This document shows positions 29,396 to 45,425 of a stretch of 64,000 nt of DNA, in pieces (position 1 is the first letter of the stretch; each line of letters starts with the position of its first letter). The position numbers were made by a program, and so were the translations under genes. The stretch lies in the IMG/VR virus record IMGVR_UViG_3300034095_001584. One strand, 5' to 3'. The notes under the pieces are model-generated. The model saw only the letters and a program-made list of their open reading frames with translations, did not search any database and was not told where the DNA came from. Origin of the DNA: a virus (lineage: Duplodnaviria; Heunggongvirae; Uroviricota; Caudoviricetes).

Positions 29396-30835
29396 TTACT
29401 TAATTTTAAGAGGTTGATATACTTTTACATACACTTCTTTTCCTTTTACCTTCACTGTATCTATATAATAGTAATCAATTAGATTGTTTGTTTTATTATA
29501 TATACTTTCACTTACTAAAATTTTGGTATTATATTGTTTATTTGATGCTTCTAATCTGGAGGCTAAATTAACTGGATCTCCAGTAACAGTATAATTGATA
29601 CGGTTGGTTGAACCAATATTACCCACAATAACTTCACCAGAATTGATACCTATTCTGGTTTTGAATGTAAATTTCTTACCTTCACTTTTCCATTTTTGAT
29701 TCAACGCATCAATCTCATTAACAATTTTGATTGCAGTTTTGACTGAGACAAATTCATGGTTTTCAACTTTACTTGGTGCATTCCAAAATGCCATCACAGC
29801 ATCACCAATGAATTTATCAACAGTTGCTCCACTTTCTTCTAAACATTTTACATAGATATCAAAATATTCATTTAATGATGTAACAACTTCATGTACATCA
29901 TTATTTTCTGATATGGATGTAAATCCTTCAATGTCACTGAATAATATTGTTACATATTCTTTTTCCCCACCAATTTTTGCATCTTTACCTTGTGTAATCA
30001 GTTGTTTTACAACTTTATCTGGTACATACTTAGCAAATGATCTTAAACCCGTTTTAACTTTATCAGTTGCTTCAATCATATCATTCACCTCAGTAATATT
30101 ACTCTTGAAGTCAATGTGTTCATTTACATCCAAATCTTTTAACTTGAGAATTTCATCTCTTACTTTATATAATGGTTTTCTAATTGCATTGGTTACCCAA
30201 AATACAATGGGCAATATCACAGAAAACATACCAATGAATACAAATGTAAATTTGATTTTATAAACTCTTATATAATAATCAGCATCAACAGACTTAATAT
30301 CACTACATACAGCATAAATTAACTTACCATTCTTAAATACAGGCTTATAAGCAGATAAAAATGTACCCCATTTATCTGTATAATAATCACTTTCAAAATG
30401 TATTTCATCCTTTAGATTTTTAAACAACTCTTTTAATCCATCACCAGCATCATCATATACTTCTCCCAACTTAGCCTGTTCTGATACATCATCACCACAA
30501 TCCATTATATAAGTAATATTTGTGCCTGTTTGTCTTACTATATAAACAAACTTAATATTTTCTATTTGATTTTTAATACTTACTATTTGTTTTCTATAGT
30601 TAATAAATATTTCACTTTGTTCTTGTTCATACTTAGTAAGACTATCAATTTCATCTGGGTCAAGAATACTACTGCAAACATTTACAGATGTATGTAGACT
30701 TCTTTTTAAACTACTTTTTGCAATATCTTCAATAGCAAATATTAACAGAAAGAAATATACTACACTTACCAATGCCAAAATGAATATGGTACTGGTAGAT
30801 AATGCAAATCTTAAATTGAATTTAAGTCTTTTCAT
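29396..30835 (-). CDS. membrane-bound class III adenylate/guanylate cyclase with periplasmic sensor domain
   Basis: two TM helices flanking a ~170-aa extracytoplasmic domain, HAMP-like linker, CHD with ILFSDIEGFT, DKFIGDAVMAFW, TGDPVNLASRLE (Lys/Asp pair suggests ATP). Confidence 0.8.
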   Translation of the reverse strand: MKRLKFNLRFALSTSTIFILALVSVVYFFLLIFAIEDIAKSSLKRSLHTSVNVCSSILDPDEIDSLTKYEQEQSEIFINYRKQIVSIKNQIENIKFVYIVRQTGTNITYIMDCGDDVSEQAKLGEVYDDAGDGLKELFKNLKDEIHFESDYYTDKWGTFLSAYKPVFKNGKLIYAVCSDIKSVDADYYIRVYKIKFTFVFIGMFSVILPIVFWVTNAIRKPLYKVRDEILKLKDLDVNEHIDFKSNITEVNDMIEATDKVKTGLRSFAKYVPDKVVKQLITQGKDAKIGGEKEYVTILFSDIEGFTSISENNDVHEVVTSLNEYFDIYVKCLEESGATVDKFIGDAVMAFWNAPSKVENHEFVSVKTAIKIVNEIDALNQKWKSEGKKFTFKTRIGINSGEVIVGNIGSTNRINYTVTGDPVNLASRLEASNKQYNTKILVSESIYNKTNNLIDYYYIDTVKVKGKEVYVKVYQPLKIK

Positions 30836-31479
30836 AGTGATATCCTTAATCCAAATGAATAAGTGTATACAATACTATTGTCTGGAGAACTAAATGGTTT
30901 ATCTATTTCTCCTACGGTAAATATTCCTAAAAACTTATTTACATCGTAATCAAATCTAATCACACTACCATAATAACCATATCTATTATCATAATCAGCT
31001 GTTCCTACTACTGGTCTAAAATTAAAGTGTAGTTTTTCAGTAATATCCTTATTATAATCAAAGCTTAATACTGCTCTTGGAGTATTATTATAGGTTATCA
31101 TACTGAAATATATGGTTGGAGATACTATCCAATCATAACTTAGTGATGTATATGGTTCAAAGTAATGATCACCTACACTATAATAATAGTAATACCAACT
31201 ACCAGCGTCTAATGTTAGTTTATCTGTTAGTTTGTATTCACTACCCAATCCAAAGTCACTTTCTTTATATTGGTCCAAACCTTGGTATTGTATATAGTTA
31301 AGATGTGGCGTAAAATCACCTAGTTGATGGCTAAAAGTGTTCTCAGATACAAAAGTATTAACTGAGTATATTTGACCGTCAAATAAATAATTCTTTGTAT
31401 AATAATTTGAAGTTTCAAAGTCTAATGCAAATATCCTCCATGACATAAGCATAAAACTCATCAGCATTAATTTTTTCAT
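30832..31479 (-). CDS. signal-peptide protein, outer-membrane beta-barrel-like
   Basis: MKKLMLMSFMLMSWRIFA leader; alternating aromatic/hydrophilic strands; ATGA overlaps both neighbours. Confidence 0.4.
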   Translation of the reverse strand: MKKLMLMSFMLMSWRIFALDFETSNYYTKNYLFDGQIYSVNTFVSENTFSHQLGDFTPHLNYIQYQGLDQYKESDFGLGSEYKLTDKLTLDAGSWYYYYYSVGDHYFEPYTSLSYDWIVSPTIYFSMITYNNTPRAVLSFDYNKDITEKLHFNFRPVVGTADYDNRYGYYGSVIRFDYDVNKFLGIFTVGEIDKPFSSPDNSIVYTYSFGLRISL

Positions 31480-33251
31480 GTTTTTGTTGGTTGATTAGGC
31501 TCCGCCTTTTTAACTCTACTAGATGGAAATGCTTTGTTACCAAAATCACTGCCGTGTAAACTATACAAATGCATAATTACACCGTGTTTTACAACTACAT
31601 CTCCCAAATCATTTACTAATACATATGGTGGACGGTCATATTTTAACATTACAGCTGAACTAACCAATAAATGATTAGTTTCACCCGCATCCATTACTCT
31701 TTGAGCATAATTGATACCATCACCACTAATATTTAAATTACCGTTGATGTCCTCCATTGGAATCACTGATCCACAATGTACACCCATTCTCATTTGTAAA
31801 TCTGGTCTATCCTTTACTGCCTTAGCTATAGCAATAGCACAATTCATGGCATCTTCCAAATAGGTAAAGAATCCCAATACCATACCGTCACCAGTAGGTA
31901 ATATAATTAACTTTTCAAGAGCATTAGCTGTTTTGTATTGCATTGTAGACTTGACCAATGCACCCAAGTCTTTACAAGCCTTCTTTTGTTCATCTGTTGT
32001 TTTCTTACTGTAAGCAACAATGTCCATAAAGAATATGTAACCTTCTTGTTCCACATCCAATTGTAGTCTACTGGATTTGACTTCTATATCAACTTGTTCA
32101 ACTTTCTTGACAATTTGTTTGACTGGTTTAACAACTTCTACCTTCTTTTCTTCTTTCTTTTCTACAACTGGTATATCTTTAAGTTTCAAGAAATCTTTCC
32201 AGTTAATCTTCTTTGCTGGTGCATCTTTCTTTTTTGGTTCTTTTGCAGCTTGTTCTTGTTCATGTTTCTTTATTACAGCTTCTTCTTTTTCACGTTTTTC
32301 AATAAACATTGCAATTTGTTTCTTGACTTCATCTGTAATATAGATGGTTACATCTTTGCCGCCACCGCCTGTATCATGTTTCTTCTTTCTTTGAGCACCT
32401 TTGGATTGTAGATATGTTTGCATTTCTATATTTCCAGTCTTGAATGCAATGTCTAAAGGAGCAATTTCACCTTTAAAGTCTGCACCGTTAACATTTGCTC
32501 CCAAATGTACCAAAAACTCCACCATGTCAACGTCGTTAGCGTTAACGGCGTAGTGTAATGGCATCCAACCGTTCTTTTCATCTCTACCATTAACTTTACC
32601 GTCTTTATCAAAGAATGATTGTACACCTTCAAAATCACCAGTTTCTGCACAGAAATGAATACTAACACCACCTGCGGATTTAGCACCGTACTTATTCAAT
32701 AATTTAACTATTTCACCTCTATTGGTGTTGGATAATACATCAATAGGATTGTTTTTACCCAAGAAATCTTTCTTGTTGACATCTGCGCCCTTGATAATTA
32801 GATATTCAACCAAGTGTTTTTGACCGTAATTTACGGCATAATGTAGTGCAGTCCAACCTTTACCAGCGTCAACTTCATTGATATCACAACCTTTACTCAA
32901 CATTTCTTCAATAGAAACAATATCACCATTCTTTGCAGCTAAGTGAAAACTACTACCACTACTGTATTTTGCACCTCTTTGTTGTAATACTTCCGCAATA
33001 GGTTTGAAACCTTTTTGTTCAGCTACATCTAGTGCGGTATTTTTACTGGTCCAATCTTTGCAATTGGCATCTGCACCGTGATTTAATAGTAATCTGACAA
33101 TTTCTATTTGATTTTCTTCTACAGCAACAACCAATGGTGGATTACCAGTGTCATCATCTCTTTGATTAACATCAATCTTTTCTTTTTCTATACAGTTATA
33201 GACATTATCATATAACCCTCTACGTATATGTGTAAAAATATTAATTGCCAT
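31476..33251 (-). CDS. ankyrin-repeat protein fused to C-terminal class III nucleotidyl cyclase domain
   Basis: about 7 ANK repeats (GNPPLVVAV...LLNHGADAN...), Lys-rich linker, then FFMDIVAYSK, PTGDGMVLGF, SGDGINYAQR cyclase motifs. Confidence 0.8.
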   Translation of the reverse strand: MAINIFTHIRRGLYDNVYNCIEKEKIDVNQRDDDTGNPPLVVAVEENQIEIVRLLLNHGADANCKDWTSKNTALDVAEQKGFKPIAEVLQQRGAKYSSGSSFHLAAKNGDIVSIEEMLSKGCDINEVDAGKGWTALHYAVNYGQKHLVEYLIIKGADVNKKDFLGKNNPIDVLSNTNRGEIVKLLNKYGAKSAGGVSIHFCAETGDFEGVQSFFDKDGKVNGRDEKNGWMPLHYAVNANDVDMVEFLVHLGANVNGADFKGEIAPLDIAFKTGNIEMQTYLQSKGAQRKKKHDTGGGGKDVTIYITDEVKKQIAMFIEKREKEEAVIKKHEQEQAAKEPKKKDAPAKKINWKDFLKLKDIPVVEKKEEKKVEVVKPVKQIVKKVEQVDIEVKSSRLQLDVEQEGYIFFMDIVAYSKKTTDEQKKACKDLGALVKSTMQYKTANALEKLIILPTGDGMVLGFFTYLEDAMNCAIAIAKAVKDRPDLQMRMGVHCGSVIPMEDINGNLNISGDGINYAQRVMDAGETNHLLVSSAVMLKYDRPPYVLVNDLGDVVVKHGVIMHLYSLHGSDFGNKAFPSSRVKKAEPNQPTKT

Positions 33252-38850: not shown

Positions 38851-38926
38851 TGGTGGACCGTGCTGGACTTGAACCAGCAACCGAAGAATTATGAGTTCTC
38901 TGCACAAACCATTATGCTAACGGTCC
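38851..38926 (-). tRNA. tRNA-Met/Ile2 (anticodon CAT), 76 nt, CCA encoded
   Basis: hand fold: GGACCGT/ACGGTCC acceptor, D stem GCAT/GTGC, anticodon loop CTCATAA, T arm GCTGG-TTCAAGT-CCAGC. Confidence 0.75.
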
Positions 38927-38949
38927 ATTAAAATTACTATTACTAAAAC

Positions 38950-39025
38950 TGGAGCGATATCTCGGACTTGCACCGGCCTTGTGGACTGGAAGGTCTACCG
39001 TGCTCCTCATAGACACTAATATCGC
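38950..39025 (-). tRNA. irregular tRNA-like gene, anticodon unresolved
   Basis: perfect 7-bp acceptor GCGATAT/ATATCGC plus CCA; D arm GTG-N10-CAC like its neighbour; weak T stem; no clean anticodon stem. Confidence 0.3.
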
Positions 39026-39033
39026 ATTAAAAA

Positions 39034-39106
39034 TGGAGCGGGTCCGAACTTTGCATTTCGCCTTTTAGTCTGGTAGACTAACGTGCTCTCTTTACACCTG
39101 ACCCGC
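39034..39106 (-). tRNA. tRNA-like gene, 73 nt, anticodon read as ACC (Gly?) - uncertain
   Basis: acceptor GCGGGTC/GACCCGC, T70, CCA; anticodon stem TTAGT/ACTAA with loop CTACCAG; 4-bp T stem with 8-nt loop ATGCAAAG. Confidence 0.4.
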
Positions 39107-39443
39107 ATATTAAATCAAAATAGGAAGGACTAATGATTACCTCCAAGTTTCAGAATCACGACTGGTTATTCATCCACAGTCCACACGGGTAATTACTCCT
39201 TGTGTTAATGACTGATGGGATTTTGTTTTCCCCACAACGGGCTACGATTTATCATATATTTTAGCTACGGTCCCGTTACGCTCAAATTTGGGGTTGAACG
39301 ACCTCAAATTCTCCATAGACTTACCCCCCATGATTCCTACTCCAACCAATATACAACGTTTTTCAACGCCATATATTGTGCGTTACAACTAAACTAATCG
39401 TTGTTCCGCCACTATCTTAAATTGTTAAAGAACTATCAAAAAA

Positions 39444-39721
39444 TGGTAGGCGTGAGTGGATTCGAACCACCGCTTTACAGATTTTCGTACCACTATAATT
39501 TTCATTACACATTTCTGTTTTGTGGTCTGGACTTTCTCTTCATCATAACATTTCTGTTTTAGATGTTTGCCGTTAAGTCTCTACACCTTCTCATTTCTGA
39601 GCTTGGCTCGGGATTGGCAGTTAAGCTTTCCCCGAATTTGACAAATTCTACTTTAGAGATTTCTCTCTAAGCACTCAATTTACGCTAAAGTCTGTTGACT
39701 CTTCCGCTGGTCTACACGCCC
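39444..39721 (-). tRNA. split tRNA gene (anticodon UAA, class I) interrupted by ~202-nt intron after U34
   Basis: 5' exon 39721..39688 holds acceptor GGGCGTG, D arm with GG, anticodon 5' stem ACAGA and CUU; 3' exon 39485..39444 holds AAAA, TCTGT, AAAGC, GGTGG-TTCGAAT-CCACT, CACGCCT, A, CCA. Confidence 0.6.
39486..39687 (-). ncRNA. putative group I intron in tRNA anticodon loop
   Basis: exon ends in U, intron ends in G; intron GAGU can pair with exon ACUU giving a U.G P1 helix; no ORF inside. Confidence 0.4.
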
Positions 39722-39806
39722 ATTTAAATTACTTACAAAGAACTATTACTTACTACTCTTTCATCTTATCACATCATCCTCTGATGTCAACTGGTTTTTC
39801 AAAAAA

Positions 39807-39890
39807 TGGTGGCTATGGAGGGACTTGCACCCCCACGGTTTTACCCACGGCTTTTTGAGAACCGCATGTCTTCTATTCCATCACATAGCC
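39807..39890 (-). tRNA. tRNA-Leu (anticodon CAA), class II with long variable arm, CCA encoded
   Basis: acceptor GGCTATG/CATAGCC, anticodon stem CGGTT/AGCCG with loop CTCAAAA, 14-nt variable arm, T arm GGGGG-TGCAAGT-CCCTC. Confidence 0.65.
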
Positions 39891-39898
39891 ATTAAATT

Positions 39899-39975
39899 TG
39901 GTAGTCCAGGTGGGGATTGCACCCACGACCTCACCCTTATAAGGAGTGTGCTCTGACAAACTGAGCTACTGGACC
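39899..39975 (-). tRNA. tRNA-Ile (anticodon UAU), 77 nt, CCA encoded
   Basis: acceptor GGTCCAG/CTGGACT (G1.U72), D arm GCTC-AGTTTGTCA-GAGC, anticodon loop CTTATAA, T arm GTGGG-TGCAATC-CCCAC. Confidence 0.65.
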
Positions 39976-40075
39976 ACTAAAGTTTTTTAAAGAACTAAAT
40001 TGTTGAATTCTTAGTTACAGAGTTTATTCTGTATGCAATAGTCACTACGTGCAAGTGATTCAACTTTGACTATCT

Positions 40076-40147
40076 AGCGGGGGAGGGAATCGAACCCCCT
40101 ACCTTCCGGTTATGAGCCGGACGATCTATTCCGTTGATCTACCCCGC
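40076..40147 (-). tRNA. tRNA (anticodon CAT), no encoded CCA
   Basis: acceptor GCGGGGT, D arm GATC-AACGGAATA-GATC, anticodon stem TCCGG/CCGGA with loop CTCATAA, T arm GGGGG-TTCGATT-CCCTC; one acceptor/T junction irregularity. Confidence 0.6.
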
Positions 40148-40439
40148 AAATTGTTTTGTTAAAGAACTAACTAAAATCGGTGTGGTTTATTTAAAGTCCA
40201 AACCACAAAATTACTAATGTTCACTTCAACATTAACGAGTTTCTTCTACCTTTGAAACTTCATTTTGAATGAGATTTTTAATCTAAGGTAACCAATCTCA
40301 ATTAACCTAAAATCATCTTATCACACATTGATGTTTTGTCAACATCTAAAATTGTCGCCGGTCTTTTAATTGGCGCTTTAATCCTCTGGTGGGGAACCAA
40401 CTCAAGTGTCCTATTAATCGGATATTCTCCGGGCGTAAA

Positions 40440-40515
40440 TGGTAGCTATGACAGGAATCAAACCTGTATATTCCATCTTATGAGGATGGCGCATCAATCA
40501 TTCTGCCACATAGCC
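40440..40515 (-). tRNA. tRNA (anticodon CAT), 76 nt, CCA encoded
   Basis: acceptor GGCTATG/CATAGCT (G1.U72), anticodon stem CCATC/GATGG with loop CTCATAA, T arm ACAGG-TTTGATT-CCTGT. Confidence 0.7.
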
Positions 40516-40522
40516 ACTGAAA

Positions 40523-40573
40523 TGGTCGCTCGCCTAAGAATCTCACTTAGTTACCAATGGTTATGAGCCATCG
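40523..40573 (-). pseudogene. truncated tRNA, 3' half only (CAT anticodon arm, T arm, acceptor 3' strand and CCA; no 5' half)
   Basis: GATGG-CTCATAA-CCATT, CTAAG-TGAGATT-CTTAG, GCGAGCG-A-CCA present; no complementary 5' acceptor or D arm within 60 nt. Confidence 0.4.
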
Positions 40574-40799
40574 TCAAATAATAACCTGCCGCCAGCTGTT
40601 TAAATTTAAAGAACAAATTAAAAATTGTGTTGGATGTGTTTATTGAATACTTTATCCACCCAACAAACAAAGTATACCATGACTCATCCCCGCAACCAAG
40701 AAGTTTTTTCAGAGACTTCCAACTCTAGGGGTGTTTTGGTTATTTACCCTCCACCAATCAGTTTTGTCTTCTGGACAACTGATCAACCAGAAATATATA

Positions 40800-41522
40800 T
40801 TACTCTATATTTAGTTTAGAGTCAACAAAATCTTTCAATTTTCTTACTCCTTTGCCTGAACAAACTCTTGAACAATATTGAAATTTAGCTGGCTTTCCAC
40901 AACATAAACATTTATTGTTTTTAACATTATGTGGATTTCCTTCATAAAGTTCAATGAAATTTTTCCCATATTTGGACTCTACATATTTAATTATAGGTTT
41001 AATTTCGTTTTTGTCAACCACTAAAATTTTTTCTGTAAAGTATTTTTGTTTATTTTCAAATTCTTTTTCTTTGTACCCTTTTATTTCAACATAAGTTTCT
41101 GACTCAATCAAATAAAAATCTGGATAATATTTAGAAACTTTTCCTTTTGTGTTTATATAATCAAATGATTTAGTATTGCGATTAAATCTTATATTAAGAT
41201 CAATTGAATAAATTACCCATGCTAATTCATAACTGCTATTACAGAATATACCTTTATACCATCCAGACTTTGATCTACCCGATCCCAGTCTAGCTCCACC
41301 GGATTTTCCTTTGAAAAATCCTTTATCTCTAGCTAACTCTTTACATTGCAAAGAACAGAATTTTCTTTTGTCAGACGGCCTAAGATACATTTTTTTATTA
41401 CATTCTACACAATGCAGAATTTTCTTTTCTTTTTTAGAAAGAATAAATTTATCTGGGTTTAATCTGACCAACTCTTTTAGTTTGTTTTTTATTTTTAATT
41501 TAGTTTCTTCAGAGTGTTTCAT
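40800..41522 (-). CDS. free-standing homing-endonuclease-like protein (NUMOD3-type motif, terminal zinc ribbons, possible PD-(D/E)xK core)
   Basis: HSEETKLKIKNKL resembles NUMOD3; CVEC...CSLQC and CLCCG...CSRVC; DFYLIESETYVEIKG; sits inside tRNA cluster. Confidence 0.45.
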   Translation of the reverse strand: MKHSEETKLKIKNKLKELVRLNPDKFILSKKEKKILHCVECNKKMYLRPSDKRKFCSLQCKELARDKGFFKGKSGGARLGSGRSKSGWYKGIFCNSSYELAWVIYSIDLNIRFNRNTKSFDYINTKGKVSKYYPDFYLIESETYVEIKGYKEKEFENKQKYFTEKILVVDKNEIKPIIKYVESKYGKNFIELYEGNPHNVKNNKCLCCGKPAKFQYCSRVCSGKGVRKLKDFVDSKLNIE

Positions 41523-42023
41523 ATCAATAAATAGTATGAACCCCTCTCAAACTATTGATTATTTTTGTCTTAAAAATGGTATCCCATAGCGGTGCTGCCC
41601 CGCTTTCTCCGGAGTGAAAGTCCAGTGATCTAGCTGATAATCTAATGGGACAATAAATTGGTAGGGCCTGACGGTAACGATCCGTCTTCCAGGGATTAAA
41701 AGTCCCTTGCTTCACCATTAAAGCTTAGACCCCATTAAAATTTGTTAAAGAACTTACTACAAAGTCATCTTACTACACATTCTTCTTTTGTCAACTATTT
41801 CTTTGTTCTTTGTTGGTGACTCCCTTTGATTAAAGGTCAAGGCAGTTCCGCCATACGTAGATGTTCTAGAGGAGTGCTTCTCCCACCATGCTGAAAGAAC
41901 AAAGAATCGTTTACTTACTACTTCTTTATCTTACCACTAAGTTTTCAAAGATCAACTTCTTTTTTCAAGAAGTTTTGAGGTAAATTATAAATATAATGAA
42001 ATATTCAAATTTTACCAGAAATT

Positions 42024-42099
42024 TGGTGTCCCCACCAGAAATCGAATCTGGATCATTCGCTTAGAAGGCGAATGCTCTAACCATTTGAGCTATAGGGAC
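42024..42099 (-). tRNA. tRNA-Arg (anticodon UCU), 76 nt, CCA encoded
   Basis: acceptor GTCCCTA/TGGGGAC, D arm GCTC-AAATGGTTA-GAGC, anticodon stem TTCGC/GCGAA with loop CTTCTAA, T arm CCAGA-TTCGATT-TCTGG. Confidence 0.8.
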
Positions 42100-44903: not shown

Positions 44904-45425
44904 TTACAGATTAATATATAATTTCTTGCCATCCTGACCACTATACTTGAATCTGGTAACAGGCACAGATAGGCTTAATCCTTCTTTGATATGAGGAAAC
45001 TTGCCTTTTTGTACATAAGCCACCGTCATGTGTGGTTTATAATCTGGATATTTATCCTCATTCTTATAACAATCACATCTACGTCTTATTTCAGATAGTA
45101 TCTCATTCTTTTCCACATCAAACTTGACCACATCATACTTTTCATTTTGAAATTGGGTTAAACCAGTAAGTTTAACAACAAATGGTTTGATACCTTGTAG
45201 GATAGTGGCTAAATTAGCCCTTGTTAAGTCAGGAGAATAACCATACTTAGCTGTAATGTGTGGTTCATCATCATAACCATAGGTACTGTCATTTGGATCT
45301 GTATAAAGAATTTGTGGTGGTATTACTGTTTTACCAAATTTAATGATGTGTGGTCCTCTGGTTGGTTCAACTATAGCCATTAAACAACCAAATTCATTGT
45401 GTCTATTTTCTGTAATCAAGTTCAT
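44904..45425 (-). CDS. 2H phosphoesterase (LigT/2',3'-cyclic phosphodiesterase-like)
   Basis: two HxTx motifs (PHITAKYG and PHMTVAYV) ~75 aa apart in a 173-aa protein. Confidence 0.6.
   Translation of the reverse strand: MNLITENRHNEFGCLMAIVEPTRGPHIIKFGKTVIPPQILYTDPNDSTYGYDDEPHITAKYGYSPDLTRANLATILQGIKPFVVKLTGLTQFQNEKYDVVKFDVEKNEILSEIRRRCDCYKNEDKYPDYKPHMTVAYVQKGKFPHIKEGLSLSVPVTRFKYSGQDGKKLYINL

Follow-up and report, generated by a model that had tools for sequence, protein, structure and literature searches.

Can a transfer RNA (tRNA) whose T-loop lacks the residues that normally hold the elbow of the molecule still be a working tRNA? The question is raised by a tRNA island in a tailed virus (Caudoviricetes; IMG/VR record IMGVR_UViG_3300034095_001584), which occupies positions 38851-42099 of a 64,000-nt stretch of viral DNA, hereafter the window; all of the genes that make up the finding lie on the minus strand. 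An initial annotation had placed the cluster correctly, in strand and in boundaries, and had suggested that its irregular members could be decoys or substrates for anticodon nucleases. The evidence that we gathered points elsewhere. We consider it likely that the odd T-loops are not defects, and that the sequences describe working tRNAs built on an alternative, compensated elbow; these would serve codons that the phage favours, and one member, split by an intron, would have to splice itself.

We searched for genes using ARAGORN (at default settings, at lowered thresholds and with introns allowed) and the Rfam tRNA model RF00005 (gathering score 29 bits). ARAGORN at default settings called seven minus-strand tRNAs in the island. 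Rfam recovered those seven at 43-70 bits and added a match at 41580-41651 (39.4 bits, anticodon UUC), and eight genes, at 39.4-69.8 bits, reach the gathering score. Rfam or ARAGORN supports nine tRNAs, and both default searches pass over four of the 13 genes: the intron-split tRNA and three irregular genes that we call B, C and D. The island is predicted to hold about 13 tRNA genes. Its members are listed here.

42024-42099, minus strand: tRNA-Arg(UCU); canonical elbow, D-loop GG, T-loop UUCGAUU, CCA encoded; ARAGORN, Rfam 69.8 bits
41659-41733, minus strand: tRNA-Lys(UUU); T-loop AUCGUUA (A54 and U58 where U54 and A58 are usual), D-loop GG kept; ARAGORN, Rfam 45.6 bits
41577-41651, minus strand: tRNA-Glu(UUC); T-loop GGCAGCA (G54, G55, G58), D-loop AUCAGCUA with AG for GG; Rfam 39.4 bits, no ARAGORN call
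40523-40597, minus strand: tRNA-like gene D (CAU); T-loop UGAGAUU (G55, A56), CCA encoded; ARAGORN at the 95% threshold
40440-40515, minus strand: tRNA(CAU); T-loop UUUGAUU (U56), D-loop AAUGAUUGA (A19); ARAGORN, Rfam 58.6 bits
40075-40148 (40074-40149 in ARAGORN), minus strand: initiator-like tRNA(CAU); canonical elbow, CCA not encoded; Rfam 59 bits
39899-39975, minus strand: tRNA-Ile(UAU); T-loop UGCAAUC (G55), D-loop AGUUUGUCA with UG for GG; ARAGORN, Rfam 62.5 bits
39807-39890, minus strand: tRNA-Leu(CAA); long variable arm, T-loop UGCAAGU (G55), D-loop AAUAGAAGA with AG for GG; ARAGORN, Rfam 42.9 bits
39444-39721, minus strand: tRNA(UAA), intron-split; canonical T-loop UUCGAAU; ARAGORN with introns allowed
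39034-39106, minus strand: Gly-like gene C (ACC); T-loop AUGCAAAG with a UGCAA core; outside the ARAGORN and Rfam calls
38950-39025, minus strand: Gly-like gene B (UCC); T-loop UGCAAGU; ARAGORN at the 80% threshold
38851-38926, minus strand: tRNA(CAU); canonical elbow, CCA encoded; ARAGORN, Rfam 65 bits

The members that had been named at the outset are real, and tRNA-Glu (41577-41651) and the intron-split tRNA (39444-39721) had been overlooked; where three CAT tRNAs had been counted there are four CAU genes (38851, 40074, 40440 and 40523). CCA is encoded in every gene apart from the initiator-like one, in line with the earlier observation of encoded CCA ends. A 7-bp acceptor stem, a discriminator followed by CCA and a 7-nt anticodon loop are present in all of the regular genes and in C and D. 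The initiator-like tRNA has a U1.U72 mismatch, flagged in the Rfam alignment, together with the acceptor strands GCGGGG/CCCCGC and A11-U24, features that we judged against those of E. coli tRNA-fMet. Additional ARAGORN tRNAs that appear at thresholds of 70-80% (39280-39424, 40250-40327 and others on the plus strand) were rejected as noise: they overlap real genes or structured RNA and are otherwise unsupported. At lowered thresholds ARAGORN found no tRNA above noise in 40150-40439, where a promoter and a leader are situated.

The elbow of a tRNA consists of three contacts, 18:55, 19:56 and 54:58, with residue 18 intercalated between residues 57 and 58, and reviews call pseudouridine 55 (Psi55) and G18 universally conserved (PMC7912444, PMC4810234). 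Because the Rfam alignments keep canonical boundaries for the T arm (GGGGG-UGCAAGU-CCCUC in Leu-CAA and GUGGG-UGCAAUC-CCCAC in Ile-UAU), the G55 that had been reported in these loops is real and no artefact of folding by hand; normal T-loops did not emerge from other boundaries. The further unusual loops that had been quoted, UGAGAUU and AUGCAAAG, likewise exist, in D and C, respectively. The textbook elbow is confined to four genes: Arg, the UAA tRNA once spliced, the CAU gene at 38851 and the initiator-like CAU. The canonical residues of G18:Psi55 and G19:C56 are missing in Leu-CAA, Ile-UAU, Glu, B, C, D and the CAU tRNA at 40440, and covarying residues are found instead. Throughout the window and 11 loci that contain homologues of the endonuclease encoded in the island, every G55 tRNA lacks GG in the D-loop and has AG in its place (UG in Ile-UAU).

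This association was measured in 306 distinct ARAGORN tRNAs with clean acceptor, D and T arms, drawn from the window and 133 viral loci. The loci were picked by G55 T-arm sequence or by an endonuclease homologue, never by D-loop content, and residues 18 and 19 were set by a simple rule (the dinucleotide inside the D-loop) with no structural alignment. GG was absent from the D-loop core in 45 of the 47 G55 tRNAs (44 have AG and one has UG; the remaining two read UAGG) and present in 232 of the 238 tRNAs with UUC (Fisher p = 3e-43), figures that measure association with the D-loop and not the frequency of the variant, as many of the G55 tRNAs were sampled from G55-selected loci. Residues 19 and 56 covary as a Watson-Crick pair, with A56 accompanied by UGU, U56 by UGA and G56 by GC (two tRNAs each). 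The CAU tRNA at 40440-40515 is one of the two U56/A19 cases, its 19:56 pair having changed from G-C to A-U. Position 54 covaries with position 58: seven of the eight A54 tRNAs, the Lys tRNA of the window among them, have U58, and G54 occurs together with G58, for example in the Glu tRNA of the window.

Outside tRNA, 88.7% of T-loops conform to UGNRA and the intercalating base is nearly always A (bioRxiv 10.1101/2022.12.26.521914). In this general motif, which occurs in flavin mononucleotide (FMN) and cobalamin riboswitches, RNase P and ribosomal RNA, an A of the partner loop sits between T-loop positions 4 and 5, and UGCAA with A18 matches this arrangement; by its description the motif excludes tRNA, where the second position is U, whereas here it stands within tRNAs. 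As UGNRA and an intercalating A typify non-tRNA T-loops, we infer that the G55/A18 tRNAs took up this general arrangement, with a geometry that would be preserved. The exchanges that we propose are from G18:U55 to A18:G55 (U18:G55 in Ile-UAU); from G19:C56 to A19:U56, as a Watson-Crick swap, in one CAU tRNA and probably to U19:A56 in gene D; and from U54:A58 to A54:U58 in Lys and to G54:G58 in Glu. Each odd T-loop is one half of a compensated D-loop/T-loop pair, which implies that the L-shape is preserved; elbow and L-shape should then persist, and the tRNAs should function in translation. We found no description of the A18:G55 exchange or its covariation in the open-access literature that we searched on the elbows of tRNAs and phage tRNAs.

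The same elbow occurs in cellular genomes. We scanned prokaryotes, with one genome per species, for the pattern GUGGG-UGCAA-NN-CCCAC-N8-CCA and obtained at least 120 loci. At least 84 matches fall within cellular-genome tRNAs, and nearly all of those listed have AG in the D-loop. tRNA-Cys makes up at least 56 of the 84 matches listed, with Patescibacteria as the main source and further cases in cyanobacteria and Asgard archaea. Among the matches listed, most G55 genes for tRNA-Cys (GCA) are solitary or in small tRNA groups within the 8 kb fetched, and 17 of the 28 non-Cys G55 tRNAs lie in loci with at least six tRNAs per 8 kb. Lone tRNA-Cys genes with G55 and AG fit a role in ordinary translation. 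Phages use the same type of elbow in otherwise regular tRNAs of at least 15 anticodon classes.

Sister phages retain the variant loops while the stems around them change (L-numbers denote fetched loci or contigs, of which L249-L368 come from prokaryotic genome contigs). The L373 orthologue of the CAU tRNA at 40440 has compensated changes in the acceptor, anticodon and T stems and retains UUUGAUU and UGA. In tRNA-Glu, the L373 orthologue has a double change at 50:64 from G-C to A-U with the T-loop GGCAGCA unchanged. For Leu-CAA, both the T-loop UGCAAGU and the D-loop AG are retained in the orthologues from L001 and L002.

The anticodons also suit the phage. We determined codon usage from 36 long open reading frames (ORFs) of the window: TTA (39%) and TTG (31%) for Leu, ATA (33%) for Ile, AAA (70%) for Lys, GAA (89%) for Glu, AGA (68%) for Arg, and GGT (56%) and GGA (33%) for Gly each rank first or second for their amino acid. 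The island anticodons UAA, CAA, UAU, UUU, UUC, UCU, ACC and UCC read exactly these codons. The proposal that the set is a supplement for AT-rich codons thus agrees with the commonest codons of the phage, and the island would supply anticodons to read the A/U-ending codons most frequent in this phage.

B and C had been singled out as genes that fold poorly and share a D stem of 3 bp. Both are real and do fold poorly; the shared D stem is GUGU/GCAC, 4 bp with one U.G pair. Each has a 7-bp acceptor stem with G1-C2-G3, then U73 and a CCA written in the gene; G1-C2-G3 with U73 is the glycine identity set of E. coli. Their D stem and AG-rich D-loop match those of regular, ARAGORN-called phage tRNA-Gly(UCC) genes in L131 and L149. 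B presents UCC inside an 8-nt anticodon loop, CCUUCCAG, which is fixed in at least eight contigs (the window, L369, L372-L374, L376, L378 and L381); the copy in L377 has the 7-nt loop CUUCCAG and compensatory acceptor pairs at 4:69 and 5:68. The window copy of B has an A29.C41 mismatch (38996) where L001, L369 and L372 have G29-C41. The 8-nt loop may belong to a frameshift-reading tRNA, or may be a 6-bp stem with a 6-nt loop. C has the D arm GUGU/GCAC with an AG-rich loop and the anticodon loop CUACCAG, which confirms the reading of ACC, and this loop is unchanged in L369 and L373, where the pair 29:41 has a double change from A-U to G-C. The D-loop of gene D is almost wholly A/U and would fit A18:G55 with U19:A56; D shows a double change at 7:66 from C-G to U-A in L369, and its L372 copy is 98.8% identical. 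At least eight contigs carry near-identical copies of B and C although their flanks have diverged to 70-85%, and D is preceded by the same upstream motif as the regular tRNAs. We rate B, C and D as probably functional tRNAs of an atypical kind.

Several points weigh against reading the island as working tRNAs with compensated elbows. Two concern the covariation, in which residues 18 and 19 were assigned by the simple rule and many G55 tRNAs came from G55-selected loci, as described above. The others concern the irregular genes. The anticodon loop of B is 8 nt and its T stem has just three good pairs; the T stem of C is 4 bp and lacks the G53-C61 pair; and D has two acceptor mismatches, A1.G72 and G5.G68. 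None of the three has an Rfam tRNA match at E<=10, and ARAGORN does not call C at any threshold, calling B at 80% and D at 95%. B, C and D may instead be decaying, or may have a role outside translation like that of the staphylococcal non-proteogenic tRNA-Gly.

Among the other explanations, the one that survives best would add to the reading as working tRNAs: the elbow variants may be adaptive, hiding the phage tRNAs from a factor that reads G18/Psi55 while leaving them usable by the ribosome. Candidate factors are a defence nuclease, a phage nuclease directed against host tRNAs, or quality control linked to TruB/TrmA. We regard this as tentative and rather unlikely. Eight or nine of the 13 island genes vary in one of three different tertiary pairs, and the variants cluster in certain arrays (11 of 22 tRNAs in L004 and 0 of 44 in L006, L010 and L011), as the crowding of non-Cys G55 tRNAs in tRNA-rich cellular loci would also suggest. 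Yet four island tRNAs keep the canonical elbow, so that the phage has not dispensed with it; the window ORFs scanned yielded no candidate factor; and compensated neutral drift in fast-evolving, often exchanged genes gives the same pattern. In its fullest form, to which we give just as little weight, the idea is of a second elbow code (A18:G55 with swapped 19:56 and 54:58), usable by the ribosome and orthogonal to the G18/Psi55-reading factor, within a partly private phage decoding system, of which the 8-nt-loop tRNA-Gly and the short-arm tRNA-Leu with its mobile ribozyme may be marks.

It is less probable again that B, C and D are decaying pseudogenes left by tRNA duplications, and the ORF-free stretches a graveyard of remnants. 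The A.C mismatch of the window copy of B where relatives have G-C, the weak T stems of B and C, a truncated tRNA fused to another RNA in L385, and a long-arm tRNA-Leu string, TGGCGGAACTG, within a spacer would all be expected of decay. The compensatory double changes, which B and D have in the acceptor stem and C in the anticodon stem, would not, nor would the near-identity of B and C amid diverged flanks or the upstream motif that D shares with regular tRNAs.

The suggestion that B, C and D, or perhaps all of the G55 tRNAs, are decoys or sacrificial substrates of anticodon nucleases outside translation seems to us improbable. Rfam does not recognise B, C or D as tRNAs and ARAGORN also misses C; B has its 8-nt anticodon loop and C has A34; and phage tRNAs that counter tRNA-targeting defences are known (eLife 2023, PMC10264068). 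The anticodons UCC, ACC and CAU, however, suit the commonest Gly codons and Met and are not usual nuclease targets, the Gly acceptor and discriminator set and the encoded CCA are present, and a decoy should copy the host tRNA rather than differ from it. The reading is left unsupported because the elbow pairs are compensated, because G55 with AG occurs in bacterial tRNA-Cys as well as in regular phage tRNAs of many anticodon classes, and because stems are compensated with anticodon loops fixed. Least probable is that B and C donate glycine outside ribosomal translation, like the staphylococcal tRNA-Gly of cell-wall cross-bridges, whose genes carry TGC or TGT for TTC (PMC7826273): B and C resemble tRNA-Gly and have UGC in the T-loop, C32 and a weak T stem, but G55 is not specific to Gly (it is also in Leu, Ile and Glu), no Fem-type transferase was found among 22 window ORFs scanned, and the anticodons fit the two commonest Gly codons.

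If the island consists of working tRNAs, its intron-split member would have to be spliced. The ORF-free stretches 39107-39443 and 40148-40439 had been suspected of hiding split tRNAs; a split tRNA does exist, outside both intervals but immediately beside the first, in three parts.

39688-39721, minus strand: exon 1, residues 1-34, ending ACAGACUU; ARAGORN with introns allowed, and the L369 allele
39486-39687, minus strand: group I intron, 202 nt, no ORF, starting UAGCG and ending UACG; Rfam Intron_gpI
39444-39485, minus strand: exon 2, starting AAAAUCUGU; 5-nt variable loop, UUCGAAU T-loop, A73, CCA

The intron matches Rfam Intron_gpI (RF00028) at 74.8 bits against a gathering score of 50 (39505-39697, model positions 1-253). 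It is inserted between U34 and A35 (CUU/AAAA); the residue at -1 is U, and the final base of the intron is G. In L369 the same tRNA is intron-less, with exons identical to those of the window and the loop CUUAAAA, and scores 59.4 bits with the Rfam tRNA model. We place the splice junction at CUU/AAAA because P1 in the Rfam alignment puts U after ACUU, the intron ends in G and the L369 allele lacks the intron. ARAGORN called this gene Phe(GAA), a call that we rejected, since the intron would then have to end in C and since group I rules, P1 and L369 all give UAA. CUU/...g/AAAA is the classical intron site of cyanobacterial tRNA-Leu(UAA), type Leu.3Ug (Williams 2020, 10.1101/2020.01.27.920355), and the cyanobacterial and plastid Leu.3Ug introns share with this one the site, U at -1, the 3' G, the lack of an ORF, a length of about 200 nt and membership of Rfam Intron_gpI. 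Unlike theirs, the host gene here belongs to a phage, and its variable loop measures 5 nt where bacterial tRNA-Leu has the long arm. By 2014 the known phage introns were all in protein-coding genes, according to a review (PMC3984707).

An identical copy of the intron is present in L383. The 735-kb phage LR756501 has an intron (190288-190493) with 78.8% identity to that of the window, and Agrobacterium phage Atu_ph07 has a similar one (MF403008, about 112890-113250), each inside a long-arm tRNA-Leu(UAA). The LR756501 record is wholly unannotated, and Atu_ph07 has no feature annotated under the intron match. The spliced exons of the window give a 76-nt tRNA with a 5-nt variable loop, a host other than a long-arm tRNA-Leu. 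The same slot in L372, L373 and L377 holds ordinary long-arm Leu(UAA) genes, and those of L372 and L373 share the acceptor top GGGC/GCCU and A73 with the short-arm tRNA(UAA), from which we infer a leucine identity. Every stem of tRNA(UAA) shows compensatory changes in the diverged orthologues of L382 and L386. We propose that a mobile, ORF-less group I intron invaded a short-arm tRNA(UAA) at the classical Leu site and would have to self-splice for the tRNA to mature.

Among the 75 tRNAs with Leu anticodons at 156 viral loci, 30 are short (75-77 nt) and lack the long variable arm. A73 is present in every one of these 30 and a tRNA-Leu-like D-loop in many; they occur in L010, L011, L146, L179, L182, L187, L210, L231, L234, L242, L369, L379, L380, L382, L383 and L386.

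Of the two ORF-free stretches, 39107-39443 had been described as unfoldable. It contains no tRNA and holds a structured RNA.

39118-39433, minus strand: structured RNA of about 316 nt flanked by TTTTGA; an optional insertion in the ORF-free 39107-39443

This RNA is present in 15 viral loci, between tRNA genes, is missing from L372, L374, L378 and L381, and is shortened in L377. Ten distinct copies support 79 pairs, 13 of them with compensatory changes, and 99.6% of cells are paired versus about 40% in slid-partner controls. No Rfam family is reached at gathering; the sole hits are low-scoring alignments to parts of manA (window, 14.5 bits; L373, 17.2; gathering score 55.2) and of ROOL (14.5 bits, in L373 only, against 99.1). 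By these scores the RNA appears to stand outside any Rfam family, and membership of ROOL or manA is not established. Like ROOL, GOLLD and manA, large structured phage RNAs that are often near tRNA islands, it has a tRNA-island setting; it is about half the size of ROOL. Two other accounts of the segment were rejected: a 29-codon ORF with an upstream GGAG inside 39118-39433 has a stop at codon 2 in L373, and a second intron would lack boundaries with U at -1 and G at the 3' end. L385 (IMGVR_UViG_3300008114_000008) has the 5' half of a short-arm tRNA(UAA) fused to the last two thirds of the 316-nt RNA, a deletion variant without the 3' exon.

The remaining features of the island are candidate signals and one protein-coding gene.

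41928-41955, minus strand: promoter-like TTGATC-N16-TAAGAT, upstream of a conserved segment of about 95 nt; sequence motif
41767-41794, minus strand: sigma-70-type promoter TTGACA-N16-TAAGAT, ahead of the Lys-Glu pair; exact pattern match
40315-40342, minus strand: promoter TTGACA-N16-TAAGAT; exact pattern match
39763-39790, minus strand: promoter TTGACA-N16-TAAGAT, ahead of the split tRNA; exact pattern match
39427-39433, 39737-39743, 39989-39995, 40161-40167, 40608-40614, 41747-41753 and 41894-41900, minus strand: GTTCTTT(AAC) sites
40800-41522, minus strand: free-standing endonuclease-like ORF of 240 amino acids; PHROG endonuclease matches

The three exact matches to TTGACA-N16-TAAGAT are the only ones in the window, all inside the island, with 0.18 expected by chance. 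GTTCTTT(AAC) stands 17-22 nt upstream of seven RNA 5' ends, and GTAGTAAGT comes after three of the four TAAGAT -10 boxes; the two elements may together make up a promoter-leader cassette that is repeated, or may serve as a signal for processing or binding. A leader of about 140 nt (40168-40308, minus strand), with hairpins such as GTGGTTT...AAACCAC, separates the promoter at 40315-40342 from the initiator-like tRNA and is conserved only in the closest relative (L369). The island would be transcribed from repeated sigma-70-type promoters. The segment of about 95 nt (about 41800-41905, minus strand), also found in L001 and L372, holds TGGCGGAACTG, the string found in the D arm of long-arm tRNA-Leu, and has GAGTCACCA at its end; it could be a small RNA or what remains of a tRNA.

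The endonuclease-like ORF has, by eye, a PD...EIK motif and zinc-ribbon cysteines. Searches of Pfam, NCBIfam and PDB sequences returned no match, and homologues lie within phage tRNA arrays at eight of ten other loci; the product is probably a homing endonuclease. Related phage arrays have diverged to 70-98%, varying by segment, and in sister contigs different tRNAs occupy the same slots between flanks that are nonetheless 86-99% identical. This mosaic would be explained by the free-standing endonuclease gene together with an exchange of single tRNAs, in the manner of cassettes, among sister phages.

The island belongs to a large (jumbo) phage. Contigs with the same island extend to 296 kb. 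The window DNA has a G+C content of about 31%, and its ORFs include collagen-like and T7-type tail fibre proteins, an SNF2 helicase and an ATP-dependent DNA ligase whose top match is a 595-kb uncultured huge phage, followed by alphaproteobacterial phages. A megablast search of 30000-54000 against GenBank phages gave no match, and the island was matched only by single tRNAs and the intron. Two further cargoes of the window may be mentioned. Three kilobases from the tRNA island, 44904-45425 (minus strand) encodes a protein of 173 amino acids that falls in the 2H phosphoesterase / 2'-5' RNA ligase (LigT) superfamily and faintly echoes Acb1; it could serve RNA repair or cyclic-nucleotide degradation. 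The adjacent 29396-30835 and 31476-33251 (minus strand) encode proteins that both have adenylate/guanylate cyclase domains, the second with a long ankyrin-repeat region besides; this is unusual phage cargo.

As a kind, the locus is a phage tRNA island. Like those of T4, T5 and jumbo or huge phages, it has clustered tRNAs with encoded CCA, interspersed free-standing endonuclease genes and phage-favoured codons. Unlike the T4, T5 and jumbo phage islands, two thirds of its members have non-canonical, compensated elbow pairs, one tRNA contains a group I intron, and a structured RNA is inserted between tRNAs; compensated elbows, the group I intron in a short-arm tRNA(UAA), the atypical genes and the unclassified RNA are what is new. 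The only precedent for G55 that we found in the literature searched is the staphylococcal non-proteogenic tRNA-Gly, a Gly(UCC)-type tRNA with U73 and without Psi55 (PMC7826273). B likewise combines UGCAAGU with UCC, and C shares the UGCAA core with ACC as the anticodon instead; here, unlike in staphylococci, G55 is found in at least five genes of differing specificity. In this island it is coupled to A18.

The 316-nt RNA adds an uncharacterised structured RNA to a tRNA-island setting like that of ROOL and GOLLD. A group I intron in a phage tRNA gene is a location unseen according to the 2014 review (PMC3984707), and the intron-less allele in L369 makes the mobility of the intron directly testable. 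The two-site exchange from G18:U55 to A18:G55 spans many phage tRNA specificities and bacterial tRNA-Cys, and corresponds to the design of non-tRNA T-loops. If this reading is true, it explains why standard tRNA finders under-call phage tRNAs, it means that the substrates of TruB and TrmA can be bypassed, and it would offer a natural experiment on the demands that RNase P, the CCA-adding enzyme, EF-Tu and the ribosome make of the tRNA elbow.

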